Shown: piece after piece, positions 22,347 to 64,000 of the stretch
Layout of the letters: each line of letters opens with the position of its first letter
Numbering within the stretch: position 1 is the first letter of the stretch
Origin: Nemertoderma westbladi
Lineage: Eukaryota > Animalia > Xenacoelomorpha
Assembly: GCA_032718475.1 (NCBI GenBank)
Contig: JAUCBJ010007725.1
Coordinates: forward strand, 62,001-126,000
DNA length: 64,000 nt
Direction: 5' to 3'
The notes under the pieces: generated by a model
The model's input: the letters and a program-made list of their open reading frames with translations, nothing else
What the model was told of the DNA's origin: nothing
The model's database searches: none
Made by a program: the position numbers and the translations under genes

Positions 22347-22563
22347 TTCTTCGAACCGGATCTGACAATCCTTTGGTTTTACATACATGCTGAGCAACTG
22401 CTGAACTTATACTATGTCAGTTAGGTATTGCTCTGATGTCAGCCAGTAACAGACTGACGTTTGCATTTTCTTCTGTACCGGCACCCGGATTGGTGACCGG
22501 TATCGCGGTACGGTACTAAACGCCGCCTTTCAGCCTTTACTTTATTGCAATTAAAACTGAACA

Positions 22564-30748: not shown

Positions 30749-31442
30749 TTTCAACTACCAGTAGCTCCTAAAAAATATCAGTATTCATAAACTGTTACTA
30801 AACTTTAAATAGTTCTAGCCTATTAGTAGCAGTGCCGGTACTTTAACTTATGTTTATCTAAAAGCTTTCAGTTTCAACTTAAGGACGGTAGCTATGCCTG
30901 CATGTCTCTATGTTTACTGTGGGGCGAGCCACGAAGTTGGCGGAGGCTTAGCGAATTGACACTGTTAGGGGGTGGGTCAATTTATGCAAATAGTTGTCGT
31001 CGTCGTCGTTGTCGTCGTCGTCGTCGTTGTCGTCGTCGTCATCGTCGTCGTCGTCGTTACGATTTTGACATGCTAATAACTTTGTCGGATTTAAAGCTGC
31101 CAAGTTGAAAATTTGTAGGTATCAATATGAGCAAAAGTTGAGATTTTTGAGAGACTTTCAGACACCATCAGTGCAATGGTCTCCCGCTAGAGGGCCACAT
31201 GTCTAAACATTAAATGCCCTCCCATTTCTTTGCTTTTAATCCGTTTAAGCTGAAACTTGGCAGATATGTATTAGACCATTAGCTGTGACTTTCAAAGGAG
31301 GCGAATCCATCTGCAGTTCTCCAGTCTGCCGCTAGAGGGCCAAAGGTCTGAAAGTGAAATCGTTGTCGTCGTTACGATTTTGACATGCTAATAACTTTGT
31401 CGGATTTAAAGCTGCCAAGTTGAAAATGCCAAGTTGCTGCCA

Positions 31443-33312: not shown

Positions 33313-33335
33313 AAAACTTTTTTTTGAAGGCGGAG

Positions 33336-33578
33336 TGTCTTGACACATATATGACCTAAGTCCCAATTATTGTAAGCAGTAGTGTTAGTCAGTATGTGTT
33401 ACCGGTAGTGCAGTAGTGTTAGACGGACCAGTCAGTAGTGTCTTTTTTATAGTTAGAACTGAAATTGTCAGACAAAATGAGTATCAAGAATACTGGAATA
33501 CATAATGCAGTAATGTCATATCGGCATATTATTATTTCATATTATATTGACCGCAATTGAATGAGTGAATCCAAAACA
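33336..33578 (+). repeat. 3' LTR of the truncated BEL/Pao copy
   Basis: PPT gaaggcggag then tgtcttgac...ccaaaaca, after which the host repeat unit (atatgagc.aaagttgag) resumes. Confidence 0.7.
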
Positions 33579-35072: not shown

Positions 35073-36283
35073 TGTTCGCGCTTTCAGACCTTTGGCAGTT
35101 TAACCCGCCAAATTAGGATGTCTTCTAGATAATAATTCGCTTTTAGCCTATGACAAGTATTTGATTCACTACACTAGTCGAAACCAATCTGTGCGCGATC
35201 ATTCACCCGCTGGATATACCCGGGAGATTGGGTTCGACGGCTTAATCTTTTTGCTATGTAAGCCTAATGTATTATTCGACTGACAGTATTATATAATCTC
35301 TGACAATATTATTCACCTTCGGGAAATATTAACAGTTCCTTTAGGACGTGGCGCTCTATCTATATAAACAGAGTTATGACTTAAACTACTCACAACGATA
35401 TGGCTTAGTTATAATTCACATATATGGCGCATTCTTTAGGAAATGCTTCGTTATCAGTCTCACTCATACACAATGCTGCACAATACTGCACACTAATCTG
35501 CCGATCTTCACTGATTTTAGTCACATATAAAAGGAACACGGACCGACTCATGTAGGGTCTATCAAATAACATTAGATTCACTTCAAACCACTTTAACATA
35601 AGTCACAATCGTTATATGTAACCTTTCTCTCTTACCTTCGGTATATCAAGAATATTGGGGTTTCGGGGTTATTTATCGTTATTCCAAATATAATAATTCA
35701 TCAACCATATTATGAAGAACCGACAGTAAATAGCAGTATAACAATATAAAAGTATGCACCAGTGTGTGGTACATGCAGTTCAGTAAGTTGAGTTGCACAG
35801 TGATTCAGTGATAACGGATATATGTCCTTATAATTAAGCCTACTAGTGTTAGGCTAAAACAGCAAAGCACAAAATATTTCCAAGCCGCTCTCTCCTGGCT
35901 CAGGACAGAATGTAAACACTGCACAATAAGCATTGAGTGATTTCTAGGAAATTTCTGTACAAGAGCCATAAAAATGCTCTGATTGGCTGACTGAACTGAG
36001 AGACGCCGTAGAACAAAGAAAATCAACACGTATGAATGTCAGCTGTTAACCGTCGTCATAGTAACTACTGTTCAAGAGTAGCTATCACCTTTTGCGTCAC
36101 GGAATTGCCATAGAATCATCAACTATGCCTTCCACAGTACACATACGGAGGAAATAGCTCTTAGATCCTCTAAAAACACCGATACAGCAATAATACGGTT
36201 TCTTACACCTATTAAATCAACTACAGAGTATTTTAATGTAAAAATAATAAAAATAACGGGGCAATTCAGCAAAGGCTTTTACA
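35073..36283 (-). repeat. 3' LTR of giant BEL/Pao element
   Basis: Near-identical to 60551-61761. Confidence 0.95.
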
Positions 36284-36929
36284 CCGCTCCCAGAAAATGG
36301 GATTTTCAGTCTATAAAATATAAAAATCACAGTTTCTAAAACTAGTCGAGTAGACGCTTGGTACATTTTACTGACGAACCGTTCTCCAGCGTATGACTGC
36401 AATTTTATTTGCTCATGATGTTGTTCAACATTATAACAATAAATTTTCGCTATAAAGACTTTGGGAAAGGTTGAGCAATTTTTTTTATTGCCGTTTGTTT
36501 GGAGGATAAAATCATAACAAAATTACCAAAAAAATGTTAATCTATGTAGAGAATGTGTTAGCAACAACATTAAACATTCTAGAATATTATGTTTTTATGA
36601 TTCAAAACATTGCAGTAATAAGTTATATTTAGTTAGGCAATGAAAATTTATTATGGTTCAAAACACTGCAGTAATAAGTTACATTTAGGCAATGAAAATG
36701 ACCTTAAAGAGAGTTGGAGGCGACGAGTGTGCTTTGACTAAAATAATTAAAAAATATTGTGATTAATAGTGACATTTAGTTTTGAGAAAGATTGTCCTAT
36801 CTGGATCTACCGCCTTATGTAAGGCGTTAGATCCAAAAAATCCAAAAGTTGGAAACGCTAGAAAAATGCAGCGATAGCAATATGAGAAAGGACTTTTGCC
36901 ATTTGCGAAACAAGATTGCCTCGATACGA

Positions 36930-43373: not shown

Positions 43374-43525
43374 TCGAGTTTTAATGAATCCATCAAGATT
43401 GTAAGGAGGTAATATTTCTTTCTCTATTCTGGAAATATTATACGGTTTTCGAAATGAGTTTAGTTTAACTAGCTGATCTAGATGTTTTTGTAGTTGTTCG
43501 AGTTCGACGAGGTCGAGAGGATTGA

Positions 43526-45007
43526 TTAATGGTAGTCTTTAAAATGAGGAACCATCGAGGGGTGGAGGATCGTTTTGGAATAGAGATCCGTCACGAGAAT
43601 TTGAGTTTCTGGTTGGGCTAAAGCAGCTTCTTCCCTCTCAGTCAGCTCTATATGTCTCTCCTCGAGCTGATTTTCCTCCGCTTGTTGCTGCAAGCGCTCG
43701 TCCAGGAATTCCTGTAAAGAGTAGGTTCGTCCACGTTCGATGTCCTCCTCTAGATTTTGTATTTCTCTATCGAACTGGGGTAAAGCGAGTTCCTTCACCG
43801 CTTGGACTTGTTGTTGCAATTTACGTTTCTCCAAGCAATCGTAAGTTCCTTTTCCGATTTTCTGCCGAATAGCGTCCAATGCATTTCGTATCACGCTCTC
43901 TTCGACTTCTGTAACAGGTTGGATCGGAGGGAGGCCAGGACGGTTGTAGGGGTTAAACGGTGATATTAGATGACCGCGTCCTAGTCCAGCGAGGTAAGGT
44001 TGGCGAATATCTAACGAACCCACTACCGGAGTGCCACCAATCAACTGTTCAGGCAACACTAGATCTTTGAACAGTGAGTACAGCTCGGGAGGATCCGTAA
44101 TACTATTAGGATCGAGAGTTTGAGGTATCACTTGGGAATGAGGAGGTCTGACCGAGTATTCCGGAACTCTGATCATGGGTTTATTCAATGATCGTTTAAG
44201 GCGCGCGACCATAGGTGATACGTCGAAAAGGTTTCGCTCGAAACTCCCATAAGTATATCGCGTAAAACTGTGTTTAGCGCAACGTCTCCGTGGATGTTTA
44301 TGCCTTTCGATCTGCTGGTTAGGTCTAGGGCATTCGTCACAGTAATACCAAAGACGCACGTCTTGAAGGGGAAACGCGGGTGATCGCTCTCCAGTTTTAC
44401 AATATTCCTCCATCTGTTCGAAGCTATCTGGAACGACAGGTAGTGGTCGATCGGCGGTAAGATACATCATCGTAAAATAGAGCCGTTTGAGTTCCATCAT
44501 AGGGTCTGGATGTATACCTTGAGGATATCGAGTTTCGAGGTATGGTTGACTGGCAACATTGAGATAGGTCTCTCTTAGAAATTCTAGATATTCGTTGAAG
44601 CCGCTACGTTTATCAGGTTCTTCAACGTCTTCTCTTTCGAGTTTATTTCGAATAGAGTTCTCGTGTTCTATTCTCGATTTATCGTTTCGACTCCGCTGGG
44701 TATGATATTTAAATAAAACTATTTCCCTCTCGGTGTCGACATCGTCGGTGTCGTGTAAATCAATAGGATGACCAGTGGTCAAGAAGTCCATATACGTACC
44801 ATTACAATGCGTATAGCGAGCAGTGAATTTTCTATAGTCCAATTCACGCGTAAGTTGCTCCTGGGACATTGGCGGTTCGATATAACGACCATCGTCCTCC
44901 GTAGTAGTTGGATCAGCGTCGCCGCGTATCAAGCTATCGACAAACGCTTGTAAAGGTAGAGTATATCTCTCCCTGATACCAAGATCATCTTCTATTAATT
45001 CAGTCAT
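43526..45007 (-). CDS. Accessory retroelement protein, N-terminal part (493 aa, unknown function; Cys/His cluster and coiled coil)
   Basis: Long open frame with coding-like composition; CDEC..H.H..C; Q/E-rich C-terminus; overlaps the downstream frame by a few codons. Confidence 0.7.
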   Translation of the reverse strand: MTELIEDDLGIRERYTLPLQAFVDSLIRGDADPTTTEDDGRYIEPPMSQEQLTRELDYRKFTARYTHCNGTYMDFLTTGHPIDLHDTDDVDTEREIVLFKYHTQRSRNDKSRIEHENSIRNKLEREDVEEPDKRSGFNEYLEFLRETYLNVASQPYLETRYPQGIHPDPMMELKRLYFTMMYLTADRPLPVVPDSFEQMEEYCKTGERSPAFPLQDVRLWYYCDECPRPNQQIERHKHPRRRCAKHSFTRYTYGSFERNLFDVSPMVARLKRSLNKPMIRVPEYSVRPPHSQVIPQTLDPNSITDPPELYSLFKDLVLPEQLIGGTPVVGSLDIRQPYLAGLGRGHLISPFNPYNRPGLPPIQPVTEVEESVIRNALDAIRQKIGKGTYDCLEKRKLQQQVQAVKELALPQFDREIQNLEEDIERGRTYSLQEFLDERLQQQAEENQLEERHIELTEREEAALAQPETQILVTDLYSKTILHPSMVPHFKDYH

Positions 45008-45567
45008 ATCTGCTATACGAGTTCACCAACATTATAATGAGTTCATATATTTATTAGGCGACCGGGCGTCGCTGCCTACTTCTCCCTTGCCCCCGGACAG
45101 TGTGAGATCCTCAGCGCCGATATACCGCTGTCGCTGTACTTTCGCCAACGACGTAGCCGTACAACGACAACGATAACCGGCACAAGTCACTCCACTGTCC
45201 GTCCCAAAGGCTTAGATGTACTTCAGGTTTTCCTTGGAGAGTTAGGTTATTTTCACGATTGCGACTAGCTACTGTAAACACACTTTAGCAGAAACATTCA
45301 CGTATAAACTCACAAATACCACACAACTGGTCACAACTACGCACATTCGGGCCATTTGTCCGTTAGTCAATGCCTTCCAGAATGTCACTGTATTATTATG
45401 TATCCTTGGATACTAGTAGTGCGCTATGTATTCCCTATGCTATTCAATGGGACAAGCTTTCTATTGTTCTTTTAACTCAATTCTAATTCTAGCGTGGTTG
45501 TTGCTATGGTGACATTATGCAAAGCTAGCGGTAGAATTAGGGTAATTCCAATACGTACAGATCTGGG

Positions 45568-46632
45568 ATGTTATTTAATAGTAATTCTTTCAACGGCAAG
45601 CGATTTTCTGGATGGGACATTGGCTCTAACAATCGTGACATCAATCTTGGAGATCTAATCGCAGTAGATGATACTACTAGCAGTGGCGTACCTAGAGTGT
45701 CTCATAATACTGGTACTTACAGCTCTATCGCTGCTCGTACACTAGGTTATTCCAGGTACGGTTCTGCACCATATACAGTAAGGTCACCAAATATAAATCG
45801 TGCCGTCATCTCTAATTCCAGTACATCGCCAGTATTCCAGCTTGGCCCTAGTTTTTCAGCCGATGCGCCAGCAAATCAAGGTGTAGTTCATTTCCCGCCA
45901 ACTACTTGTAGTGCTGTACACTATGAGCCGCTGTCCGATAATACCGTCGGCACCAATGCTATAGATGCCGATCTGAGTACTGTAAATGTACATTTACCCA
46001 ATAACTTTCTAGGTGTAGGCACAGTAGATGAACCACACGTTTCTAATTTACTTATTGGTGCACCCATACCAGACTCTGTTAGTGGTAGCCATGCCGGAGA
46101 GGGAGTTTCCAGTTTTGAAATTCACTGCGAGACTAACCATAGCGTTGTAATTCCAACTATGGGTGCTAGTACCACGTTATTGGAAAGCGGCCCCATGGAG
46201 GCTTATTTGAGTCCACCAGTTCCAGCGTCTAAGCAAATTATACCTCCCCAGGAGGTCAATGTGACTGATTCAAATATGGATGAAACAGTTGGAGGAGCAC
46301 CTCCTCTACCTGTAGTTCCGCCAATTGCCTCATCCGTAGTGTCTGCTAACCGCAGAAAACAAAGATCTATAAATACTATCGGTAGTTCGTTAACTAGGGC
46401 AGCCAGCGGCCAACGGAACACGGCCCCGAGAGGCCGTGGGCCTGGCCGTCCACGTTGCAACAGCCTAGGTGCGGTGAACAGAAAGGGTGACGGTGAAAAC
46501 CCTTATGGGACAAGATCCCAGTCTGGCACCGTAAACGCAACGCAGCCTAATTTAAATGGTGGCGGTAGTAATAGACGCCAACCAGACAACTCTATGGGCC
46601 CTCAGTCCATCATTCCACCGGGCAAAGGTTAA
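45568..46632 (+). CDS. LINE ORF1-position protein (354 aa, S/P/G-rich, basic C-terminus)
   Basis: ATG-initiated ORF directly upstream of and overlapping the ORF2 frame; no recognisable RRM or esterase motif. Confidence 0.6.
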   Translation: MLFNSNSFNGKRFSGWDIGSNNRDINLGDLIAVDDTTSSGVPRVSHNTGTYSSIAARTLGYSRYGSAPYTVRSPNINRAVISNSSTSPVFQLGPSFSADAPANQGVVHFPPTTCSAVHYEPLSDNTVGTNAIDADLSTVNVHLPNNFLGVGTVDEPHVSNLLIGAPIPDSVSGSHAGEGVSSFEIHCETNHSVVIPTMGASTTLLESGPMEAYLSPPVPASKQIIPPQEVNVTDSNMDETVGGAPPLPVVPPIASSVVSANRRKQRSINTIGSSLTRAASGQRNTAPRGRGPGRPRCNSLGAVNRKGDGENPYGTRSQSGTVNATQPNLNGGGSNRRQPDNSMGPQSIIPPGKG

Positions 46633-49600
46633 ACACCAATTCCAAGTTAGAAACAAGACTGAAGTTTGGTAATTTTAATGTTGAGGGTATAGTAAATAGT
46701 ATTGTGGAACCTGATTTTACCAAATTAATTTCTGGTTATGACTTTTTCTTGTGCACTGAAACGTGGCTTAGTCCAGTTGCTGAGCTTGATTTAAATATAA
46801 ATGGCTACTCAAATGTATCCGTTAACAGGAAGCGAAAAAATAAAAATGCTAAAAGATGCAGTGGCGGAATTACACTATATTATAAAACAAAATACGATGG
46901 GGCGGTACATGTTTTGTGTGACAGTGATGACGACATCCTATGGGTACTTTTTGAAGCAAAAAAATTCGGTATCATTACAGATATTGTTCTAGGTCTGGTG
47001 TATTTACCGCCGAACGGTTCAACAGCAGCCTTAGGGGACCCAATTTCTGTATTTGATAAACTGGAGGAAGGAATAATAAAGTTCAGTTGTTTGGGTGAAC
47101 TTATGATTTTTGGCGATTTCAATGCTCGAACTAGTACCGAGCCTGACTTCATCCCCAATGACAGACCTTGTGATACTCTTGACAGACTGCTTCCTAATGA
47201 TGACATGATTCCGAATAGCCATCAGTTTAATACTACTGACCTTCCAATTGAGACAGATAGGAAAAACACCGATTTAAAAATTAATAACTATGGCTGGAGA
47301 CTACTAACTCTTTGTAGAAATTCTGGACTCCGAATAGCCAATGGGAGAGTTGGAACTGATGGTTTAGTCGGTGGCGAGTGTACTTTTCACTGCACTGGTA
47401 AAAATAAAGTAATTGGGAAATCTACTATCGATTACTTTATCGCAAGCCCACTTTTATTTAAGCTATTCTCAGAACTATATGTCGGCGATGAAAACTTGTT
47501 TTCAAAACACCGTGTAGTCACGGCTGTAATAACTGGGATAGGTGAACAACTGCACTGCGGCTCACCTATCCCACCAACTGACTCTGTTTGCAATGATAAA
47601 TTTGTAGAATCTAAACACTTCCACTGGCGAGATAATAAAGCTGACAGTTATAAAAATTTCTTAGACAACCCCGATATTAAGGCTACTTTGAACAACATTA
47701 GCGATGACTTATGTGATGGTATATTTTCCAAAGAAAAAATTAACAAAGCTGTTGGCAGTTTCAATGAGTGTTTACATTCAGCTGGGGACCAGTACTTTGC
47801 AAGTACAAAAACTGACACAAAGGAAAAGGGTGACCTAGGAAACCACCCCTGGTACAACAGCGAGTGTTCTACTAAAAAGGCGGCATTTCGTACAGCGCTA
47901 AATAACTGGAATAGGAATCGGTCTCCAGAGGCCCATTTGCTATTATCAAAAGCACGTGGAGTTTATCTTAGTTGTATACGGCGGACAAAATTTGCATTCA
48001 AGGTTTCCCAATCAAAAAAACTTGCAGAATACTCTGTAACGGAAACTAAAAAGTTCTGGAAACTTCTGTCTAAAGCTAGTCAGTCCAACCGTGGCAGTGA
48101 TTGTACAAAACATATTTCATTAAATGTCCTTGAAAATCATTTCTCCAACCTGTGTAAGAATAATAGTGATGACAATTTTATTGACATTGGAATTACGCCC
48201 CAAAGACCAAATAATTTCAATATGCATAAAGATATTTTCGAAAATTTACTTGGAGATGCTTTTACTGAAGAGGAAGTTCAGGGTGGAATAAGAAATCTCA
48301 AGAGAGGTAAAGCATCCGGTGCTGATCTCCTAATAAATGAATTCTTTGTAGTTGGCTGCTCGCAGTTGACACCTGTGATGACAATACTTTTCAATGCTGT
48401 GCTCTTCTCTGGGCATTTTCCCGAGGCATGGACCGATGCTATTATCAGCCCGATTTACAAAAACAAAGGTAGCAAGTCAGAGGGTGGAAACTACAGGGGA
48501 ATCAGTCTATTAAGTGTTCTTGGTAAACTCTTTACAGGTTTAATTAACTCTCGTTTAACTTGGTGGGTCGATGTATCAGGACTCCTAAGTGACGCACAGG
48601 CGGGTTTTAGGAAAGGGTTTAGTACTGTAGATCATATATTTACGCTGAACACTATTGTGAATCACTTAATAAACTCAAAAATGAAACTATACGCATGCTT
48701 TGTCGATTTTCGAAAAGCATTCGATAGTGTGGACAGACAGGCACTCTGGTTAAAATTAAGTAACATGGGTTTTTGCGGGAGAATTTTTAATATTATTAAG
48801 GAAATGTATAAGGCAATAAAATCACGTGTTCGTTGGGATGGTCAATTTTCACAATCTTTTGACTGTCTAGCTGGAGTCTTACAGGGCGAATCTCTATCGC
48901 CCCTTCTTTTCTCACTGTTTCTCAATGACTTTGAGAGTCACATGTCTACATGCGGGGTTGACAGCTTGGACATCGGTACCTTACAACTGTTTATGTTACT
49001 CTATGCGGACGATATTGTCCTCGTTTCCCACTCGTCCCTTGGCCTGCAGAGATCTTTACATGCTTTGTCGGACTACTGTAAGTTCTGGGGACTCAGTGTA
49101 AACCTTGATAAGACTAAAGTGGTTGTCTTTAAAAAGGCGGGGTCAATGTCCCCACTGGATACATGGACTTACAATGGCACTCCCGTTCAGGTGGTGTCAC
49201 AGTATTTGTACCTGGGAGTTGTTTTCTCCTCAGGGGGTAGCTCTTTAGCAGCTCAGAAATTGTTGTGTGACAAAGCTAATAAGGCCATATTTTCGTTGTC
49301 GAGGTATATGTATTGTTTTCCTACGGCGCCTGTGCAACTTTTATGCAAACTGTTTCAATGTCTTATTAAACCTATTTTAAATTACGGTTGTGAGGTCTGG
49401 GGATTTTGCCCTGCATTGGGTATCGAGCGAATCCAGCTGTCTTTCTTAAAAAGAGTGCTTAAATTGAAATCGTCAACCCCAAACTATATGGTGTACGGCG
49501 AGTGTGGTATTTTCCCGCTCATAGTTGAAAGGAAAGTGAGTATTCTAAAATATTGGCTAAAACTTATTACAATGCCAGATTCTAGAATCGCAAAACAAGC

Positions 49601-50243
49601 CTACACATTGGCTGTAAATGATTGTTTACGCAAACCGTCGCTTTCAAATTGGGCTTCGCGAGTACGGGATTTATTGAACGGAATTGGCTTATCTTGGGCT
49701 TGGCGTGACCAGTTCGTACCAGAGGAACTAAAATTTTTAGCTATAGCTAAACGGGTACTTAAAGAACAATTTATTCAGAATTGGTGGTCCTTAATAAATA
49801 ATTCGCCCAAGGGTACTCTTTATGTAAAGTACTGCTTCCGACCTGAATTATACCTTAGTGTGCTAACTGAACATCCACAACTGAGATATTCGCTTTCGAA
49901 GTTCAGATGTTCTTCGCATCATTTGGCTATAGAATCTGGGCGATGGCGAAGAGTTGCTCGCTCCGATCGGGTCTGTCAAGTATGCAACACCGACCAAATA
50001 GAAGACGAGTATCATTTTTTGTTTGTGTGCCCTAAATATAACGCTCTGAGAACCCAATATTTAGATTCGCATCATAGCGCAACCCCTCCCAGTTTTGAAA
50101 AATTTCGCCTATTTCACTTGTCCTCGGATTCATCCGTAATTATGAATTTGGCACTTTTTGTCCACAAAGCAATGGCCCTGAGGGCAGAGGTATTAACACC
50201 GACTATAGTTGGTGTAACAAGCATAGCTTCTGTTGTACTCTAG
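46575..50243 (+). CDS. LINE ORF2: AP endonuclease + reverse transcriptase + C-terminal CCHC finger; start codon uncertain
   Basis: FGNFNVEG (upstream of the annotated GTG at 46704), TETW, GDFNAR, TIDY, YRGISLL, QAGFRKG, FVDFRKAFDSV, QGESLSP, YADD, YLGV, LAIESGRW..CQVC..EDEYHFLFVC. Confidence 0.93.
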   Translation, partial: TPTRQLYGPSVHHSTGQRLNTNSKLETRLKFGNFNVEGIVNSIVEPDFTKLISGYDFFLCTETWLSPVAELDLNINGYSNVSVNRKRKNKNAKRCSGGITLYYKTKYDGAVHVLCDSDDDILWVLFEAKKFGIITDIVLGLVYLPPNGSTAALGDPISVFDKLEEGIIKFSCLGELMIFGDFNARTSTEPDFIPNDRPCDTLDRLLPNDDMIPNSHQFNTTDLPIETDRKNTDLKINNYGWRLLTLCRNSGLRIANGRVGTDGLVGGECTFHCTGKNKVIGKSTIDYFIASPLLFKLFSELYVGDENLFSKHRVVTAVITGIGEQLHCGSPIPPTDSVCNDKFVESKHFHWRDNKADSYKNFLDNPDIKATLNNISDDLCDGIFSKEKINKAVGSFNECLHSAGDQYFASTKTDTKEKGDLGNHPWYNSECSTKKAAFRTALNNWNRNRSPEAHLLLSKARGVYLSCIRRTKFAFKVSQSKKLAEYSVTETKKFWKLLSKASQSNRGSDCTKHISLNVLENHFSNLCKNNSDDNFIDIGITPQRPNNFNMHKDIFENLLGDAFTEEEVQGGIRNLKRGKASGADLLINEFFVVGCSQLTPVMTILFNAVLFSGHFPEAWTDAIISPIYKNKGSKSEGGNYRGISLLSVLGKLFTGLINSRLTWWVDVSGLLSDAQAGFRKGFSTVDHIFTLNTIVNHLINSKMKLYACFVDFRKAFDSVDRQALWLKLSNMGFCGRIFNIIKEMYKAIKSRVRWDGQFSQSFDCLAGVLQGESLSPLLFSLFLNDFESHMSTCGVDSLDIGTLQLFMLLYADDIVLVSHSSLGLQRSLHALSDYCKFWGLSVNLDKTKVVVFKKAGSMSPLDTWTYNGTPVQVVSQYLYLGVVFSSGGSSLAAQKLLCDKANKAIFSLSRYMYCFPTAPVQLLCKLFQCLIKPILNYGCEVWGFCPALGIERIQLSFLKRVLKLKSSTPNYMVYGECGIFPLIVERKVSILKYWLKLITMPDSRIAKQAYTLAVNDCLRKPSLSNWASRVRDLLNGIGLSWAWRDQFVPEELKFLAIAKRVLKEQFIQNWWSLINNSPKGTLYVKYCFRPELYLSVLTEHPQLRYSLSKFRCSSHHLAIESGRWRRVARSDRVCQVCNTDQIEDEYHFLFVCPKYNALRTQYLDSHHSATPPSFEKFRLFHLSSDSSVIMNLALFVHKAMALRAEVLTPTIVGVTSIASVVL

Positions 50244-51682: not shown

Positions 51683-53943
51683 TTAAGTTGGGGAGTCCCT
51701 AGATGTCGGTTGGATTAGGGAAGTGGTCGTGGGAAGAGTTTCTTGCCTTCCATAGTTTCCGGAGAGCTCTCTGTCTCTTTCCAGTAAACATAAACGACCC
51801 ACTGGGCGATTAAGCTGTTGAGTCTCAAAGACTATCCCTGGTTTCTTAAAGTTACGCCGCATGACGACGAGCTCTACTGATCGCACCAAACCATCGCTCG
51901 AGATATGAGTCTCGATGATACGTCCTGTTTGCCATCGCTTACGTGGGAGATCGGGGTCCACAATAAGCACCATGTCTCCAGCGCTGACGTTTTCTTGCTG
52001 CGCAAACCACTTAGTTCGAAGTTGTAGAGTGGGCAGGTAATGTTTCTCGAAATGGTCAGCGAAACGACGGGATAGCAACTGCATAAGTTGCCAGGTTCGA
52101 CGGCAGTACTCGTCTCCGTCTGTGATCTCCGATCGTGGGAGCATGGCTACGGGTTTCTTCAGTAGAAAGTGCGCGGGTGTTAGCGCTTCCAGGGAATCAG
52201 GACTTGAAGAGACTGGCATAAGCGGTCTTTCGTTGAGATAAGCGGCGATTTCCTCCATTAACGTCCGCAATAGTTCGTCGGTGAGATAAGCGCGACAAGG
52301 CACAATAAAGTGGAACGCAGTCTTCACGCTCCTAATCAATCTCTCCCAACTTCCTCCCCACCAAGGGGCGTCGGCGGCGTTGAAGGTCCAGCTAGACGCT
52401 GTTATCCTTAGCTGATCGTCCACCTGTCTTTTGTTCCAGTCCTTTACGTAAGCTTGAATTTCGTTGTTGGCGCCAATGAAGTTCGTTCCCTTATCCGATC
52501 TCATCGTGTTACTGGTTCCGAAGCGAGCGATCTGTCGTCGTAAACTCAACACGAAGCTGTTGGTGGATAGATCATTTACCATATCGAGATGGATAGCTCT
52601 ACAAGTCATACAAACGAAGATGACACACCATCTCTTGACTATAGTCCGAGCACGATATACTTCAATAGGGCCAAATAAATCCACACTGGTATTAGTAAAG
52701 GGTGGTTCGTAGAAGCTTACTCTTTCCCTAGGTAATTCTGCCTCTCGCTGTGTCAAAGGCCTACTGAATGCTTTCCTATAGGGTATGCAGTTCCTAAGGA
52801 CTTGGTTCAGAGCCCTACGGGGTTTATAAAAATAGTAGCGAGTTCTAATTTCGCTCAGAACTCGTTCTCTTCCAGCATGATACAGTTTGCTATGAACATC
52901 TACAATCATCTTGATTTGTATGTCAAGATTTCTAATGAGTATGGGAAACTTAGTGTCAAAGGATAAGGGGGCGTTGGTGAGCCTGCCTCCAACACGTATT
53001 AACCCATCTATCATGGTACTAGAGAAGCGATCCCTTAAGCGCATCTGCGGATTTCTTAACAACAGGAAATACTTATCGGGATCCTCATAGCATTGTAGGA
53101 GTCTCAGCATCTGTTTGTTGGTTTCATCATGCTCCTGGTAACTGATCTTCTCCTTTAGAAACCTGTTGGATATCTTATATTTAGGAAGATCTTTAACAAC
53201 ATGGACTCTTGCAGATGTTGATGGAGCATCATCACTATTGGTCTTTGTCCCGGAGTAACGATGATGAAAACATCGTTTTAAACAGGTGACGGCTTTACAG
53301 AGCCGATTCCAGGAACTGTAATGACGTATCACTCTCTGCAGGAGAGGTGAGAGTCCTTGCGAAATATCTGGTATTCCAGATTTCCAATCCTTGTCACGGA
53401 TTTCTAAGACTTCTTTATCCGTGGCTGTGGGTTTCTGATCCAAAGCATCCTCTCCGGAAGTAAATAATACAGATAGATCAACCGCAGGTTTAAACAACTT
53501 CGATTTACTCGCTCGAGTTTTGGGTTTAACTTTCTCCGCTCCCTTGGCCTGTCTGATCTCTGCTGTTGTGAGATGGGGAGGCCATTCTTCTTCTTCTCTG
53601 TAGAGAAAGTCGGGTCCACCTAACCATTCGGGAGTATTTACCAATTCCTTTGGAGTCGCTCCTCGGGAAGCGATGTCTGCTGGATTAATCGTTCCTGGGC
53701 AATGTCTCCATTGGTCCATCGTCGTGCGACTAAGTATGATGGCTACTCTGTTGGTAATGAAGACGCTGAACTGACAGACTTCATTGGTGATATACTCTAA
53801 CACGAGTAAAGCGTCGGTCCAATAGACAGTTTTCTCTAATGGATAGTCAATCTGTTCTGTTACATTCCGGCCGATGGCTGTAGCGTATAGAGCCGCTTTT
53901 AACTCCGCTCGAGGAACTTTCAACTTGTTGTTGATTAATGCCT
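51683..53943 (-). CDS. pol: Giant BEL/Pao pol, 3' part (RNase H remainder + integrase)
   Basis: VPRAELKAA, YWTDA, NPADIASRG, H..H..CIPY (degenerate HHCC), VDLFGP, SDKGTNF, GSWERLI, RWQTGRI. Confidence 0.9.
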
Positions 53944-53957
53944 TAGAAGTAATCAAG

Positions 53958-56297
53958 TCCCAGATAGACCATATTCTGTTTCGTAGGAAATACAGGAGCT
54001 CTATACAAGACTGTAATGCATTCACACTTCGACCCTTCTCCATTGATCACCGCCTTATTGTGGCCAAGGTAAGACTTAGTCTGCGTGCTAGCAGAACAAC
54101 GAAATCTGCCTTGCCACGGCATGACTGGTCCTCTCTGTTGCAACAGCCAAGTGTGAGATCCAGCTTCACACTACAGCTGAGCAACAGGTATGAGGCTCTT
54201 GCCTCTGAGGCGGCAGATCACTGTGAGGGCTATACTGCCTTTACAGAAGCAGTTAAGTTAGCAGCTGCAGAAACAGTTCCTGTATACCCTCGAAACAGGA
54301 AAAGGGCCCCCTGGACTGACAACAAAATTCAGAAGTGCCGAAATGACCTTCATAAGGCGCAGAAAGAGTCCCGACTCAAACAGACTACAGCGGCCAAGAA
54401 TGCAGTTAAAGCTGCATCTAGGTCCCTGAACAGGCAGTACTCTGTTAATCTACAGGAGCTAATAAACCAACAGGTTGATGCCATCAATGATGCTGACGAC
54501 AGCAGGCAATCATCCCAGGCATGGAAATCGATCAATCTGCTTACTGGGCGGAAAAGCCAACCAACCACCAAGGTTAAGGCTGAATCACCAGCCGATCGCC
54601 TCAATGGTTGGAAAGCCCACTTTGAAAAGCTCCTCAATAATGACAGGGTATTGCCTGATAACTTTATAGAAGTAAAAGTGTCTGAGTCTGTACTCCCAGA
54701 TATTCCCATTGGCGATATCTCCTTTGCAGAAGTGAAGGCTGCTGCAAAGAGCATTAAGACCAATCGTGCCAGTGGAGTAGATGGTGTTCCCCCTGAGGTC
54801 TTTAAAATACCTGAGTGTTTAAAGCTCATCTATCCCATCATAGTAGACATGTACCGTACAACAAGAGTCCCACAAGAAATGAAAACAAATAAGTTGGTGC
54901 CAGTTCCCAAGAAGGGCAACCTAACACTCTATGGTTCTTTTCGGGGAATCTCATTGATCTCGATTGCTGCAAAACTATACAATAGAATTCTATTAAATCG
55001 CATCAGGGATCCCATTGAGAGACTGCTACGTGGAAATCAGAATGGGTTCCGTAAAGGTCGTGGGACCATGGAGCCCATTTTGGCACTTAGAAGGATAATT
55101 GAAGAGTTATCAAAAAAGAAAGACAGGCATCTGGCTGTTATCTTTGTTGACTTCTTCAAGGCCTTTGATTCAGTCTCTCGCTCACGTATGTTCAGCATAC
55201 TTTCATTATATGGGATTCCTGATGAAATTATTGCAGCAATCAGATCAGTATACGATGGTTCGACAACATTTGTGTCTACTGTTGACGGTGACACAGAACC
55301 ATTTGAAGTGTTATGGGGCGTCCTCCAAGGAGACACACTTGCACCATTCTTGTTCATTATTGTGGTTGACTATGTTCTACGCATGTCCTTAGATCATCAT
55401 AATGAAGATGGGGTGATGTTAACTCCACCTACTGGCTCCAGAAGTCGAGGAAATCCTGCCAAGTACCTAACTGATCTAGACTTTGCTGATGACTTAGGAG
55501 TACTCTCAGAATCATTAGAGGGAGCCCAGCGGCTCCTCAGCTCATTAGAACATGCTGCTTCTAGTGTTGGTCTTTTTATTAACTCCAGAAAGACCAAAAT
55601 TCTGACAGTTAACTTTGAAAGTCCTCAGCAAGTCTCTGATCGGATGAGCATAAGCTCAAAGGATGGTATGCTTGAGCATGTGGACGACTTCTGTTACCTG
55701 GGATCATGGATCCGGAAGTCAGGTGAGGACCTTCGAATACGTAAGGGAAAGGCATGGGCAGCCTTGAATAGGCTTTCCAGGATTTGGAAGTCACCTAGAA
55801 TTAATCGGAAACTTAAGGTCCGATTATTTAGAGCAGCAGTAGTTCCAGTACTCCTCTACGGGAGTCCATGCTGGGCTCTAACTGCTGAGGACACCAAATC
55901 TCTGGATGGCACATTCACAAGAATGCTACGCCGGGTACATTGTGTCAAGTACAATGCACACATCTCCAACCAGACACTATATAACATTGGAGGTGTCTCA
56001 TTGGTTCCCCCAAGCTTGACACTAGAACAAAATCGCCTCCGCTTTGCAGGACATTGCTTTCGCCGTGAGGACCAGCCTGTGCATAATCTTGTACTTTGGC
56101 AGCCTCATGGAGTGAATAAGCATGGTGGACAGCCCATGACTTTCTTGAGACGCATCTTAAAGGACACTGGCCTTAAAGATGCGGATGATCTAGCAAATGT
56201 CATGGGTGATAGGGAGTTATGGCGGTGCAATTTTGTTGACAAGCCGGCACAGCATTCTTAAAAATGCAGCTGCAATGCAGCATGCCGATCCTAGTAG
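53958..56297 (+). mobile_element. 5'-truncated RTE-clade LINE inserted in the BEL pol; ORF open from 53958 to 56261
   Basis: SQIDHIL (APE end), FRGISL, QNGFRKGR, FVDFFKAFDSV, QGDTLAP, FADD, YLGS; TAG-repeat 3' tail; TSD TAGAAGTAA(Y)CAAG at 53944-53957 and 56298-56311. Confidence 0.92.
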
Positions 56298-57723
56298 TAG
56301 AAGTAACCAAGGCGACTTTGATTCCATCCGAAGTTTCCACTCTTAGATAGGCTACTATACCTATTCCCATATCGCTGGCGTCTCCAAACACATGGAGTTG
56401 ATAGGAATACGTAGGGAGAACATGACCAAAATATGAACGGGAAATTATAAAATCCTCGATAGCCGGCAGAGAATCTTCCCATTTCATCCACTTCTTCAAT
56501 AATTCTCCCTTAAGTGGATCGTCCCATGAGTGGTTTTCAAGCCACATTTGTTGTACCAAACTACGAGCAATCAATATAACTGGGCTAATAAATCCCAATG
56601 GATCGAAATAAGTGCTCAGTATACTTAAGCAAATCCGTTTGGTTCGAACTGGATTATCTCGCTGTTTTAGCTGGAAAAACAGGATATCTCGCTCTGTGTC
56701 CCATTTCAAGCCGAGTGTCTTGGTTTCTGGCAGATCATCTTTGATCAAATCTAGATCTTTCGCCCCTCGATCTTCCGCAGGGATCGACTCCAGAAACTCA
56801 CGGGAGTTGCTGGTGAATTTCGTTAATCGAAACCCACCTCTTTTTAAGCACTCTACCGTTCCTTTAGCGACCTCAATGGCTTCCTCAACTGATGGAAGGG
56901 ACTTCAGATTGTCGTCCATGTATATGTCCCGCTTGATGTTGTCGATCACTTCCTTAGAGAAGGCCTCTCGGTTGTCCTCTGCAGTGGTACGCACTACCGA
57001 ACAGGCGTTGGAAGGGCTTGAGATTATCCCAAAGGCCTGGATGGTCATCCAATACTCCACCGGTTTCTGGTTGAGGTCTCCTTCGGGCCACCATAGAAAT
57101 CGTAGGCTATCTCGATCCCTATCCAACACTTTGACTTGCAAGAACATGCCTTCTATATCGGAGGCGAAAGCAATCGAATATTGTCTCAATCTTAAAAGAA
57201 TTCCCAACAAAGATTGAAGTAAGTTGGGTCCTGGTAACAATTCAGAGTTAAGGGATTGACCCATGTAAAGAGCGGAGCCATCAAACACTACTCTCACTTC
57301 ATGTGGTTTACCGGGTTTAGGAACGTAATGGTGAGTTAAGTAATACGTTCTTTCAGTCACAGGTGTTTCTTCCGGTACTCTCTCCGCGTATCCCTTACTA
57401 ATAAATTTCTCCAGCTGTGTTTGATACATTTCTTTAGCTGAAGAATTAGCCGTAAGGCGTCGATGGAGTTGCGCGATTCTTTTTTCCGCCAAGGGTCTGT
57501 TATTGATGAACTTCGGTTCTCTCTTGCGGAAAGGTAGACCGACTTCATACCTACCTTGATCTTTGAGGAAACGTGAAGTTGTCTCTTGGATCTGCTTGGC
57601 CCTTTCCTCTTCCACCGACAAGGCTTTATCGTAGGAATTGGGCTCTACCGCCTCTTGCGTAAAGAATCGTACGGCATGTTCATCTCGAGTCTTGGCATTG
57701 CAACGCTCCTTGGGTTTCCTTGG
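56298..57723 (-). CDS. pol: Giant BEL/Pao pol, 5' part (RT + RNase H start)
   Basis: RYEVGLPF, YYLTHHYV, VRVVFDGSA, SLNSELLPGPNL, SDIEGMFLQV, YMDD, FDPLG, HVFGDASD; frame open upstream of 57621 through VRFFTQE. Confidence 0.92.
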
Positions 57724-58288
57724 CTACTCCCATCCGGTGTATGTCTTCCCAGGCAGCTTCTGATAAATCAAACGGGAGTCCGGGTCCGGGGAAGTTCCAT
57801 TGCGACTCGACAATAGACTTCAGTTCTTCCCTCGTGTATCCCGCATAACTATCTCTAGTTGATCGCTGACTTCTCGCCCAATCGATCTGGTGTTCTTCCA
57901 CCGCAATCAATAACCTAGTGAGTACGGCTGCAGGAAGAATGAGAAGGGGATCCGAATAAACCGCTTCCATCATCTTTGCTCCGCGCTCGGGTGTCAGCTC
58001 TACAGTATCCTCACTACTGGAGCTGTTGGGCCGTTGAGAAATAAGTTCTTGGCTAGCGGGTTGTTGCTGTTCTGCTGCTTCTTGGTCCCGCTTGACCTGA
58101 GCTCGAGTGCCTATGATAGACCTACGATGTTGGACCAGCCTAGGTTCCGTTATTACTACTGGAGGGATGACCTTCCTCACAGTGGGAGGTGAACTGAACT
58201 TACGACTAGACGGTTCTACGTCTCTATCTGAGTCACAGATAGTTACATCTAATAAACTGTCTGACAGGTTCTGCTTAGTATCAGACAT
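57680..58288 (-). CDS. Probable gag N-terminal remnant of the giant element (202 aa)
   Basis: First ATG ORF after the long leader; overlaps the pol frame; no capsid, zinc-knuckle or protease motifs. Confidence 0.5.
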   Translation of the reverse strand: MSDTKQNLSDSLLDVTICDSDRDVEPSSRKFSSPPTVRKVIPPVVITEPRLVQHRRSIIGTRAQVKRDQEAAEQQQPASQELISQRPNSSSSEDTVELTPERGAKMMEAVYSDPLLILPAAVLTRLLIAVEEHQIDWARSQRSTRDSYAGYTREELKSIVESQWNFPGPGLPFDLSEAAWEDIHRMGVAKETQGALQCQDSR

Positions 58289-58399
58289 GTTTATGGATAC
58301 AGTTGAATGCCTACTGCTATATTACAGTCTAAGCAAGTCTAGTAATTCAGTATTAACTGCTAGCCTAGTAATTAATTAGCGATACTGCTACTCAGTGTA

Positions 58400-58675
58400 G
58401 CGTGATATATATAATATATTAGAATACCGGTATGCTTATAGTATATATAACTATTATTACAGACTAGGTTTATCACAGAATACCGGTATAATTTTAGCAC
58501 AAATATATATAAATATATAATAGGCCTATCTGGAATACCGGTATACAGCTTACAGTTTTGTAGTATATATAATTATAATTCTGGACTAGAATTAATTATA
58601 AAGTACCGGTATAATTTCAGCCTAAATTTATAGAAATAAAGATAATAGGCCTATCGTAAATACCGGTATATCAAT
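58400..58675. repeat. Degenerate ~60-bp tandem repeat with TACCGGTA palindrome in the element leader
   Basis: aataccggta/taccggtata at ~58423, 58479, 58534, 58603, 58659. Confidence 0.7.
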
Positions 58676-59614
58676 TATTTTAAATAATTGAATTTCTGAA
58701 TTTTAGGGTTACTTGGTTACTTTACTTACTTTATTACCGTTTTTTGAGCAGTAATCCAACTGATATTGAGACCTAATGGTTGTATGGTATGCCTACTATT
58801 TCTAAATCGTTAGATTTGATTTATAATATATATATATATACCCGTTTTAATGGGTTTTGTCAATGTTTGAAATAAATGTTATTATTTCTGGGGAGTAATC
58901 ACTACACAAAGCGGTGCGCTTTCAGTGAAGTGTTACTTATAGGACACTAAAACAAATAATTCTAATTTACCTAAGTTACTTAATACTACAAATTACGTAC
59001 AATTCGGGTGAGATTACAATCTCTAAATAAACACAAAAATTTACAAAAAACACAAAATACGAATTTTCAGGGTAATTTTACAAGAAGTCTACAAACCAGT
59101 CTAACAAAGGGTTAGAATCTGGTTATTACAACGGACAGGGTACTGCGGTATTTGAAAATAATACGTAGTAGTAAATACACTGCGTTGTCCAGATAGGAAA
59201 ATACCACCGCCTGACGACCTATAGCCGTATCGCTATAGGTACTACGTTATGTATCACGGAGTGTTCCTACCTAGAAGTTAATAGAGCTAATCGAACGTGC
59301 CTATCAACCACTTTACAACACAAATATAATGCCTACACTAATTACTCTCGGAAAGCACTGTACACTAAACCCTAAATTAGGTACGAGTGCTTATACAACA
59401 GATAATCAGTAGTTAAAAATACTTGAACAGCTAAAAGAACCACGGCATCTGCTGGAGTGACCGATGCACAAAATCACCAGTCTTTACCTACGCCAAGCAG
59501 CCCGTGTAGTACCGGGGTTAATTTAACTATAGCGGTATGTATAACAAACACAATTACTGTAGGAACAAACTTGGGGAATGAATGTTGCGAATAATCGCAT
59601 AAACTCTGAATAAT

Positions 59615-60182
59615 AAATATTACGCTACGCGTACAAACCACTCAAACAAAATGCAGACCAAACACTGACAGACTACTATCAAGCCTAAATAAACTACAGG
59701 ACATGCAGACTCCGAAATGATTAGGTAGTATGCGTTCTAACCCAGTAGTACGACTTATTCTTTAGATGGGGGTTTACCTTACAGCTTTGGCTGCCCCTAC
59801 TTCCTAACCGTTCTTTATCGGACAGAGGCTCTACACACACTGCAATCCGTTCAGACCTAATAACAGCCAGACAACTAACCAGCCTACAAATTATCTAAAT
59901 AAATATTATACGCTACCCGTACAGACTTACACAAACAAAGTACAGACTAAACGATGGCAGACTACTCTCAAGCCTAAATAAACTACAGGACATGCAGACT
60001 CCGAAATGATTAGGTAGTATGCGTTCTAACCCAGTAGTACGACTTATTCTTTAGTTGGGGGTTTACCTTACAGCATTGGCTGCCCCTACTTCCTAACCGT
60101 TCTTTATCGGACAGGTGATCTACATACACTGCAATCCGTTCAGACTTAACAGCAATCAGACAACAGTTCAACCTACAAATTG
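59615..60182. repeat. 289-bp tandem duplication in the element leader
   Basis: aagcctaaataaactacaggacatgcagactccg at 59681 and 59970. Confidence 0.9.
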
Positions 60183-60539
60183 TCTGTACAATCTGATCAG
60201 GCTTACACGCCTTCTGTTCAATACTAGCCTACAAACAAATAAAACTGACAGAAATAAGTAAGCTCTAAAAGAAACAAGGGGTGTACAGTCCCTAATCTCT
60301 TAAACAGCCTACCGGTATTCAATAATCAAATCGAATAATACTAATGTACTTATACGGGAAGTACCGGTTAGGACAGTTAGGCCTACGGACCTACAGAAGT
60401 ACCAGTTCTGGCAGTTGGACCTACGGGCCTACAGCAGTACCGGTTCTGGCAGTTGGGCCTACTGACCTACAGATGTACCGTTCAGGTTTACCGGTTGACC
60501 AGTACTTTCAACTTTATTGCTTACTGCAATAAAGAAGCG

Positions 60540-60550
60540 ATATCCGTTAT
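60540..60550 (-). promoter_or_regulatory. Non-tRNA primer-binding site candidate ATAACGGATAT
   Basis: Abuts the 5' LTR; lacks TGG; exact complement of LTR 11-mer at 61289-61299. Confidence 0.6.
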
Positions 60551-61761
60551 TGTTCGCGCTTTCAGACCTTTGGCAGTTTAACCCGCCAAATTAGGATGTC
60601 TTCTAGATAATAATTCGCTTTTAGCCTATGACAAGTATTTGATTCACTACACTAGTCGAAACCAATCTGTGCGCGATCATTCACCCGCTGGATATACCCG
60701 GGAGATTGGGTTCGACGGCTTAATCTTATTGCTATGTAAGCCTAATGTATTATTCGACTGACAGTATTATATAATCTCTGACAATATTATTCACCTTCGG
60801 GAAATATTAACAGTTCCTTTAGGACGTGGCGCTCTATCTATATAAACAGAGTTATGACTTAAACTACTCACAACGATATGGCTTAGTTATAATTCACATA
60901 TATGGCGCATTCTTTAGGAAATGCTTCGTTATCAGTCTCACTCATACACAATGCTGCACAATACTGCACACTAATCTGCCGATCTTCACTGATTTTAGTC
61001 ACATATAAAAGGAACACGCACCGACTCATGTAGGGTCTATCAAATAACATTAGATTCACTTCAAACCACTTTAACATAAGTCACAATCGTTATATGTAAC
61101 CTTTCTCTCTTACCTTCGGTATATCAAGAATATTGGGGTTTCGGGGTTATTTATCGTTATTCCAAATATAATAATTCATCAACCATATTATGAAGAACCG
61201 ACAGTAAATAGCAGTATAACAATATAAAAGTATGCACCAGTGTGTGGTACATGCAGTTCAGTAAGTTGAGTTGCACAGTGATTCAGTGATAACGGATATA
61301 TGTCCTTATAATTAAGCCTACTAGTGTTAGGCTAAAACAGCAAAGCACAAAATATTTCCAAGCCGCTCTCTCCTGGCTCAGGACAGAATGTAAACACTGC
61401 ACAATAAGCATTGAGTGATTTCTAGGAAATTTCTGTACAAGAGCCATAAAAATGCTCTGATTGGCTGACTGAACTGAGAGACGCCGTAGAACAAAGAAAA
61501 TCAACACGTATGAATGTCAGCTGTTAACCGTCGTCATAGTAACTACTGTTCAAGAGTAGCTATCACCTTTTGCGTAACGGAATTGCCATAGAATCATCAA
61601 CTATGCCTTCCACAGTACACATACGGAGGAAATAGCTCTTAGATCCTCTAAAAACACCGATACAGCAATAATACGGTTTCTTACACCTATTAAATCAACT
61701 ACAGAGTATTTTAATGTAAAAATAATAAAAATAACGGGGCAATTCAGCAAAGGCTTTTACA
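60551..61761 (-). repeat. 5' LTR of giant BEL/Pao element
   Basis: Near-identical to 35073-36283. Confidence 0.95.
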
Positions 61762-63046
61762 CATACGGTTTGTATGAAGGATAATATAGAATAAGTGAGC
61801 GTTCTTACCAACTTAGTCACATCGTTACAGCTAAGACTAACTTAAGTAACTCTAAATGAATACGAGTTTAGTCTATTTTGGCTGTGTAGATATCGTAATT
61901 TCCGCCATGGAAACGCACTTGTTTTAAATAAATTCATTAATATTCCATTCAATACTATTCATTAATTATTATACATTCATTATAAATACGATCTAGCTAG
62001 ACCTACAGTAGTACTAGTCCTACCTACACATAAGGAGTGGAAACACAACACAATTATTTGGGATAAAATTCTACAGTAAATAAATACTGTAATATTTATA
62101 CCATAAAAGACTGCACTTGTGAAGAATACCACCAGGTTATCACATTTCGGCCGAAATATTATTGGGATTTTTATGAAGAATTTCTTAACTTTCACTGTAC
62201 ATACAGACTAATTCGTTTATTGTTTTGGTTAGATACAGCCCTTCTATAACTTGTTTTTGATTAAAAAAAAACTGGTAGGTATTCTTCACAAGGGGTAAAC
62301 TGAGGTGAAATATAAAAGCAGCTTCACGCGTGCCATGAAAAGACACCGAAGTTAATTTATGTATTATAAATTATTATAACATTAATTTATTATTGTATCA
62401 TCCCTGTTAATAAATGAATATTATATTTATTAGCATAACTTATTTATCCTGATAGGCCCAAACGTGCGCATAGCGCTGGTTCAACCCCCGGTGACGTGCA
62501 TTCTCATTATTTCCATTTCTGAACAACTTATTACAATATTATTCTACAAGCATATGAGTTATATGTTAATTAATATTTTTGTGAGTTCGAAAAGTTTTAT
62601 AGATGGAAACTAAAATTTACATTATCATATATTTATTAGCTGATGTTAAAAAGCTTTCTATTTGATACATTACATTACGTTTAGTTATGTATGTTTATTT
62701 TTCTTCAACTTTGTCTTTGTATCTCAGGAATATGCTTTTAAAACCACAACGAAATGGCTTGTTGGTGATAATATAGATCCAGAAAGATATAGCTTGGTTA
62801 CCAAGAGCCATATAGGCCATACACATAAGGGCTATGTGATATTTATTACCTGAAAATATATAAGGAAATATTAAACTGACATAGACCTATTTCATTCCAG
62901 GATTATGCCCCGGTGGCTAAATTCATAAGATTAGTAAAATGGTGTAACAATGTAACAATGCAATCGGTACTGACCGCCCCTGAAATAAAATGGTTATTGA
63001 AATATCAAGTAAAAATATATTTATAAATGTAAGAGTTTAAAGATCT

Positions 63047-64000
63047 GTGAGATCTGAGGTCGCTATGTTGATGGGTCCGCTGCCACTGTGTATGAATGGC
63101 TGACCACGAGATCTCGGGGCACTATGTTGCTGGGTCCGCCTGCACTGTGTAGTGTATGGCTGACCGTGAGATCTGGGGTCGCTATGTTGATGGGTCCGCC
63201 GCCTCTGTGTATGGCTGACCGTGAGATCTGGGGGCGCTGTGATGTTGGGTACGCCGGTACTGTGTGTGGCTGACCGCGAGATCTGGGGGCGCTATGTTGC
63301 TGGTCCCGCCGGCACTGTGTATGAATGGCTGACCACGAGATCTGGGGGTGCTATGTTGATGGGTCCGCCGCCACTGTGTATGAATGGCTGACCACGAGAT
63401 CTGGGGGCACTATGATGCTGGGTCCGCCGCCACTGTGTGCGGCTGACCGTGAGATCTGGGGGCGCTGTGATGTTGGTCCCGCCGTCACTGTGTATGGCTG
63501 ACCGTGAGATCTGGGGGCGCTATGTTGCTGGGGTCTGCCGGCACTGCGTATGGCTGACCACGAGATCTGGGGCGCTATGTTGCTGGGTCCACCGGCACTG
63601 TGTATGGCTGACCGCGAGATCTGGGGGCGCTATGTTGCTGGGGTCTGCCGGCACTGCGTATGGCTGACCACGAGATCTGGGGCGCTATGTTGCTGGGTCC
63701 ACCGGCACTGTGTATGGCTGACCACGAGATCTGGGGGCGCTATGTTGCTGGGTCCACCAGCACTGTGTATGGCTGACCACGAAATCTGGGGGCACTATTT
63801 TGATGGGTCCACCGCCACTGTGTATGAATGGCTGACCACGAGATCTGGGGGCGCTATGTTGCTGGGCCCACCGGCACTGTGTATGGCTGACCACGAAATC
63901 TGGGGGCACTATGTTGATGGGACCACCGCCACTGTGTATGAATGGCTGACCGTGAGATCTGGGGGCGCTGTGATGTTGGGTACGCCGGTACTGTGTGTGG
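63047..64000. repeat. GC-rich minisatellite, ~55-60-bp unit, runs off the window end
   Basis: tgtgtatggctgaccacgagatctgggggcgctatgttgctgggtccaccggcac repeated ~16 times. Confidence 0.95.

Follow-up and report, generated by a model that had tools for sequence, protein, structure and literature searches.

The window, as we call the whole 64,000-nt stretch of DNA analysed here, carries an LTR retrotransposon with a BEL/Pao-type pol whose 5′ LTR is followed by a sequence without the TGG start of a tRNA site. This raises the question of what primes reverse transcription of the element, and whether the LTR itself might supply the primer.

Anatomy of the element and its primer-binding position

The element spans 26.7 kb on the minus strand (35073–61761). 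Self-comparison delimited two TG...CA LTRs, the 5′ LTR of 1211 bp at 60551–61761 (–) and the 3′ LTR at 35073–36283 (–), and between them no second long repeat pair around pol. Together with a 5-bp target-site duplication (GTATG at 61762–61766, – strand, with the other copy at 35072–35068), these LTRs enclose the BEL pol, and a short purine-rich tract at 36284–36291 (–) precedes the 3′ LTR in the PPT position. A leader of about 2.2 kb, within which a number of tandem duplications occur (58436–60483), separates the 5′ LTR from a 213-aa ORF without family match that precedes pol (57683–58321, –). Pol itself begins with a BEL/Pao reverse transcriptase (RT) and the first part of RNase H (56203–57723, –; Pfam Peptidase_A17, E 5e-29), is split by an inserted non-LTR (LINE-type) RT ORF (53847–56261, +), and continues with the remaining RNase H, an integrase (Integrase_H2C2) and DUF5641 (51683–54046, –). 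Further downstream lie a second inserted LINE-type element with endonuclease and RT (45541–50243, +) and, between pol and the 3′ LTR, two overlapping extra ORFs of 498 and 828 aa (41052–45022, –).

The order of BEL-type RT, RNase H and integrase is that of BEL/Pao elements. All 120 RT homologs among the matches listed carry PF05380, at 39–45% identity, and those named among the matches listed come from sea urchins, corals, a mussel, a tunicate and lancelets. Upstream of the RT, neither a gag with triple Cys-His motif nor a protease was found, and there was no DUF1759 match; since tblastn of the 120 homologs gave no match upstream of 57798, the window copy holds no recognisable gag or protease. 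By its sequence, the window copy is a young, defective BEL/Pao-derived element, classed by its Pol alone. Only 3 of the 1211 LTR positions differ between the two LTRs, yet the copy has taken up two LINE-type insertions and has no gag, which would fit a young insertion that decayed rapidly.

In the 828-aa ORF, the stretch from about residue 520 to 590 includes three Cys-His knuckles. A sequence search with this ORF returned no homolog and its predicted structure had a pLDDT of 31. By language-model features it resembled 3′–5′ exonuclease domains (score 0.92; 25 of 30 matches fell into clusters in which 50% of the members carry PF01612), which we treat as a lead only. Other LTR elements with captured DEDD exonucleases are known. 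Elsewhere, the window holds an ORF that resembles F-box only protein 9 and is open throughout in a single frame (13215–14204, –; at best 43% to sea-urchin proteins), 305-bp direct repeats (31123–33881) flanking an integrase-like ORF (31502–32980), and tandem arrays with units of 21 bp (17100–19200), 68 bp (5700–7300) and 55–59 bp (63000–64000). It also holds a second BEL/Pao element (22095–28673, +), which has 252-bp LTRs, a gag with DUF1759 and a pol, and sits in a duplicated repeat.

Directly after the 5′ LTR of the 26.7-kb element, the 11 nt read ATAACGGATAT (60550–60540, –) and include no TGG, in agreement with the initial annotation. The exact complement that the latter had placed in the LTR was likewise recovered at 61299–61289 (–; LTR positions 463–473), with a second copy in the 3′ LTR (35821–35811). 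We refer to the 5′ copy as the candidate self-primer and to 60540–60550 as the primer-binding site (PBS); their complementarity ends at 11 nt on both sides. Among 5000 dinucleotide shuffles of the LTR, an 11-nt match arose 7 times at offset 0 and 15 times at offsets 0–5. Across the 24,247 positions inside the element, 10 (the real site included) have an LTR complement of at least 11 nt. Chance is thus an unlikely explanation for the match. Moreover, the element passes the rule of a published screen for self-priming, at least 10 bp of LTR complementarity located 0–5 bp from the LTR (PMC6317226), with 11 bp at offset 0. The remark in the initial annotation that the PBS of Tf1 also starts with ATAAC is correct (PMC11042837). 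As evidence we nevertheless rejected this likeness, and since the related elements described below have no such motif in common, the 5 shared nucleotides are probably a coincidence.

One alternative is that a host tRNA, or a fragment of one, binds here to a site without a TGG start, and that the LTR match arose by chance. BEL/Pao elements with tRNA-Tyr sites have indeed been reported (Achilles, PMC4580426). The second BEL/Pao element of the window, taken as a negative control, has neither a TGG nor a self-complement (3 nt) at the site after its 5′ LTR (22347 onwards), which means that a missing TGG alone proves nothing. The site of this second element presumably resembles the tRNA-Tyr-type sites of insect BEL/Pao elements. 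For the 26.7-kb element, chance amounts to about 0.1–0.3%, and 9 of 10 relatives show the same relation between LTR and site in unrelated letters, so that we regard a host tRNA at this site as highly improbable. A tRNA-like primer encoded by the element itself was not seen, given that an Rfam search of 35000–62000 returned no match; with ARAGORN, neither the window nor 60 of the 79 related loci scanned showed a tRNA.

Covarying and intron-split primers in related families

Relatives were collected from metagenome contigs with a profile built from 20 homologs and the RT of the window element. At least 536 were confirmed, of which 79 loci were kept; viral and prokaryote collections contained no relatives. 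Most of the 79 loci end inside the LTR. In 11 of them the 3′ end of the LTR could be set by self-comparison, leaving 10 after the duplicate L001 had been merged with L003; L045 and L059 were dropped for unclear LTR ends, and L067 was set aside at first. The RTs of these 10 loci are about 40–45% identical to that of the window element, the nearest one with known ends being at about 45%.

In none of the 10 loci do the 8 nt that follow the LTR include a TGG. Contiguous complements between LTR and leader were short except in L018 (10 nt), and the partial matches started just past a pyrimidine tract followed by AG. With one GT-AG intron of up to 400 nt allowed for, an exact complement of 10–15 nt to the own LTR was present in 9 of the 10 loci, eight times across a GT-AG intron and once contiguously. 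The eight primer-splitting introns measure 67–164 nt and each has a GTAAG donor. For the nine matching loci, shuffled leaders equalled the observed score in 0–2 of 300 cases. The tenth locus, L072, reached 7 nt within the intron limit (87 of 300 shuffles) and was counted as having no match; as seen after the fact, a 409-nt intron would complete its match if one G-U pair is accepted. L067 turned out to be a second contiguous case, with 12 nt of low complexity. For L005, L016 and L061 we used the padded 3′ LTR, as their 5′ LTR was cut, and for L050 the 3′ LTR on account of a single change at the junction in the 5′ copy, where the 5′ LTR has a mismatch (G-U pair).

In an LTR-by-leader matrix each LTR matched its own leader best, with off-diagonal values of at most 10 except between L005 and L065, whose near-identical sites match each other; the LTR of L072 scored up to 10 elsewhere. 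In the sister families L008 and L016, two primer positions differ and the PBS has changed to match. A blind scan, in which no LTR ends were assumed, found matches of at least 10 nt across an intron in 14 of 59 scannable loci versus 0 of 295 null runs, and thereby added L008, L035, L048 and L068; many of the 45 misses are loci cut inside the LTR. The contiguous version of the blind scan (26 of 59 loci at 10 nt or more versus 15.2 in the null) was not separated from its null, and L029, L043, L049 and L073, which came from it, are leads only.

The check proposed earlier, whether PBS and LTR covary in related families, thus showed that 9 of 10 loci keep the match while its letters differ. Together with the blind scan (14 of 59 versus 0 of 295), this makes it likely, as far as sequence can indicate, that self-priming is common to the branch sampled. 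The covariation thereby supports the proposal of the initial annotation that this BEL/Pao element is self-primed, whereas the idea that self-priming arose in this lineage in particular gives way to a spread over the branch.

In a quick tree built from RT sequences, whose 45 rows include 33 of the 79 loci and database proteins, the intron-split families are scattered over the branch, and the two contiguous cases do not group as sisters. When rooted on the second BEL element of the window, the tree places the row of the window element, which is long, outside the intron-split families. L018 and L035 are sister families with a contiguous and an intron-split primer, respectively, pointing to loss or gain of an intron at the primer. 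Many self-matched sites (L005, L050, L065, L068, L072, L058), as well as 22347–22361 of the window, contain TTCGA or a one-base variant of it. It is a speculation that the self-primed sites descend from a tRNA-type site.

Transcription start and predicted folding of the RNA

For the 11-mer to serve as primer from the 5′ LTR, it has to lie within the transcript, and the initial annotation had cautioned that a TATA-like motif could set the start just past it. Both motifs behind this caveat, TATAAG at 61310–61305 and TCACT at 61281, are present in the window. If TATAAG, 11 nt before the 11-mer, were a TATA box, the start would fall near 61280, past the primer.

The copies of the LTR in sequencing runs bear on this point. 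The LTR was present in 6 of 7 listed runs, as contigs of which none is recorded as RNA, and the 14,836 contigs in run X1 indicate many diverged copies; the LTR pieces carry 0–6 other letters. Within 61255–61350, summed depth drops about 20-fold in X1 and 65-fold in X3 from 61287–61290 to 61283–61286, and in X4 and X6 it is zero over the latter interval. Loose ends cluster at 61286–61290 and at 61337 in all 4 runs examined. These ends delimit a 50-bp LTR block (61288–61337, –) that is common to diverged copies, holds TATAAG and stops one base past the primer. Two contigs diverge from the window at 61289, the last base of the primer. Past 61288 the sequence varies between copies, and TCACT at 61281 is therefore not common to them.

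On the other side of the block, the copies differ before 61337, yet remain T-rich on the sense strand and end in TTTTAG, which is likely, judging from these letters, to be a splice acceptor at 61332. With a donor at 61566, it would delimit a possible upstream intron (61332–61566, –). Downstream of the primer, a 77-nt GT-AG intron is predicted at 61037–61113 (–), of a length as in the primer-splitting introns of L016, L024 and L050. Among the joints listed for the sequencing runs, of which X6 may be RNA, none coincided with intron ends.

When 61299–60480 was folded as RNA, the 11-bp primer helix was predicted with p 0.62–1.0 per pair, and for RNA starts at 61299–61312 the primer duplex had a mean p of 0.93–0.95 in the 820-nt fold. 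When the RNA begins at 61320 or farther 5′, other pairings take the place of the duplex in nested folds (p 0.06 or less), and forcing it in these longer RNAs costs only 3–10 kcal/mol; crossing helices lie outside the nested fold model. Judged by the nested folds, a start no more than about 13 nt from 61299 would be preferred. By comparison, 61337–61319 pairs with U5 in a predicted helix that none of 200 shuffles equalled (the block having been picked after the fact), and this pairing in combination with the acceptor suggests a start further upstream, such that TATAAG would be transcribed and may be part of the RNA instead of serving as a TATA box; the caveat is weakened but not removed. The conserved block 61337–61300 as a whole can pair with 60903–60880 and 60657–60619, where its 5′ half far exceeds shuffles (0 of 200) and its 3′ half does not (24 of 200). 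Pairing of the block upstream of the primer may be a switch by which the primer or the splice acceptor is masked.

These observations have to be weighed against the possibility that the RNA does start near 61280, set by TATAAG. The 11-mer of the 5′ LTR would then lie outside the 5′ part of the RNA, and the primer would be supplied by the 3′ LTR copy, either of that RNA or of a partner, or else by a minor transcript with an upstream start. TATAAG at 61310 does lie within the conserved block with TCACT 29 nt further on, and Tf2 of fission yeast switches between alternative starts with and without the primer (PMC5341516), but the sequence past 61288, TCACT included, is not shared by the other copies. 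In L016 a TATATA lies 31 nt before the primer, as expected for an RNA starting there; in the 8 other relatives checked, the 60 nt ahead of the primer contain no TATA-like motif. Moreover, the primer-splitting intron of the relatives survives in both LTRs, which would fit splicing of the 5′ copy only, and cutting the 3′ copy would lose the R region needed for strand transfer. We therefore consider this alternative unlikely.

In Tf1, the primer helix is the central one of a 'pretzel' with two further helices, formed by PBS-adjacent sequence with LTR sequence downstream of the primer (PMC10085805). The U5–leader stem that the initial annotation had drawn around the site (60577–60557 with 60539–60523) can be drawn at –10.1 kcal/mol, but is missing from the predicted fold, which instead has a U5 hairpin (60590–60569), a leader hairpin (60534–60512) and a U5–U5 stem of 60568–60551 with 60664–60679. 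The best LTR partner of the leader is 60742–60717 (–), at –19.0 kcal/mol versus –10.1 for the earlier stem. Its predicted pairing with 60539–60519, which 8 of 200 shuffles equalled, would form a pretzel-like third helix, with the 9-bp leader hairpin (60512–60534, –) as a competitor in the predicted fold. The U5 segment 60664–60679 (–), the predicted partner of the LTR end (60568–60551), would form a pretzel-like second helix; its p is up to 0.91, with 25 of 200 shuffles as good, which is not significant. The helix order in the window thus fits the Tf1 'pretzel' with modest support (8 and 25 of 200 shuffles equal), and in the relatives flanking helices reached 5 of 200 or better in 1 of 18 tests.

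The abundance of alternative helices in the LTR, such as the post hoc pairing of 61337–61319 with U5 (0 of 200) and that of part of the 11-mer at 60934–60927, could also mean that the complementarity is a regulatory RNA helix, hiding the PBS or coupling packaging to splicing, and that a host RNA is the real primer. Against this, the matched stretch begins 0–4 nt past the LTR end in every case and is 10–15 nt long. Furthermore, the sites of different families match the window site at only 3–6 of 14 bases, so that a different host primer would be needed for each. A regulatory helix with a host primer hence seems improbable to us, and self-priming remains the reading that we develop below.

Proposed priming mechanism and comparison with known systems

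Taken together, these sequence comparisons make it quite probable that the window element primes reverse transcription on its own RNA in a Tf1-like manner, outside the Tf1/sushi group. Transcription would start at or upstream of 61299, placing the 11-mer near the 5′ end of the RNA, where it would anneal to 60550–60540. By analogy with Tf1, in which the RNase H cut lies between bases 11 and 12 (PMC7175516), the RNase H of the element would cut on the 3′ side of 61289 or close to it, and the freed 3′-OH would be extended through U5 and R. Following the standard LTR cycle, plus-strand synthesis would copy the primer back into the PBS, as has been described for the plus-strand intermediate (PMC7175516), and the two sites would thereby stay complementary despite drift.

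In the families with a split primer, the match is complete only across the intron and would thus form in spliced RNA; the matched stretch sits where minus-strand synthesis would begin. The intron could be kept through such a cycle, as the junction would lie within the primer and be absent from strong-stop DNA, while the unspliced 3′ copy would restore the intron. The window copy would then be an intron-less member, whereas most families of the branch would build their primer by splicing, and as a defective copy it would be mobilised by the proteins of other copies. On balance, we lean towards the wider scenario in which a broad branch of animal BEL/Pao elements gave up tRNA priming entirely and self-primes with a primer usually made by host splicing of an LTR intron, such that the spliceosome gates reverse transcription. 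The window family would have moved or lost this intron, and its primer would be a longer 5′ fragment that binds the PBS through its last 11 bases.

For Tf1, self-priming is an established mechanism, and the Tf1/sushi group, Tj1, Tcn1 and the copia TAR lineage have been inferred to share it (PMC4600332, PMC6317226, PMC7175516, PMC10085805). Our literature search found neither self-priming nor splice-built primers in BEL/Pao elements; older papers, Repbase and GyDB were outside its coverage, and an earlier mention is possible. 'PBS' appears nowhere in the main text of the Sinbad paper, a metazoan BEL/Pao survey or an annelid survey (PMC554778, PMC3118150, PMC8556966), and the text available of PMC8220671, PMC3286476, PMC3601003 and PMC7472051 contains nothing on BEL priming.

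If the proposal is true, BEL/Pao would be the third superfamily with self-priming, implying that tRNA priming was abandoned by LTR elements on several occasions, and the self-primed elements might escape silencing by PBS-directed tRNA fragments. A splicing-dependent primer would link the copying of retrotransposons to RNA processing by the host in a new way. It might also account for the failure of PBS finders on many marine-invertebrate BEL/Pao elements, and the complementarity would give a simple rule to locate LTR ends, introns and start regions in BEL/Pao elements.

As in Tf1, Tf2 and Tj1 of the Tf1/sushi group, the site of the window element lies right after the CA of the LTR, is the complement of an 11-nt LTR sequence and shows no tRNA site (PMC10085805, PMC7175516, PMC4600332), and, as in Tf1, two further helices can be drawn in 'pretzel' order. 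Unlike the Tf1/sushi elements, which are Ty3/gypsy chromoviruses, it has BEL/Pao domains and no chromodomain match in Pol, and so stands outside that group. It further differs from Tf1 in that its flanking helices are weak and its primer is a candidate rather than the established first 11 nt of the RNA. Most of its BEL/Pao relatives have a predicted intron that splits the primer, of which the text available of the Tf1 papers makes no mention.

The plant elements Tcn1 (gypsy) and TAR/Houba/Osr-1 (copia) were predicted by the same rule of LTR–PBS complementarity (PMC6317226), but that screen concerned plant gypsy and copia lineages, and its contiguous-only rule would miss primers split by an intron. 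In contrast to tRNA-primed BEL/Pao elements, the window copy combines a self-complement with extra 3′ ORFs, and has no tRNA-type site and no recognisable gag. It nevertheless shares with such elements, of which Achilles with its tRNA-Tyr site is an example (PMC4580426), the Pol domains and their order, the TG...CA LTRs and the 5-bp duplication. The window element would thus represent a known mechanism in a superfamily for which we found no description of it, and the splice-built form in its relatives would be the more surprising part.
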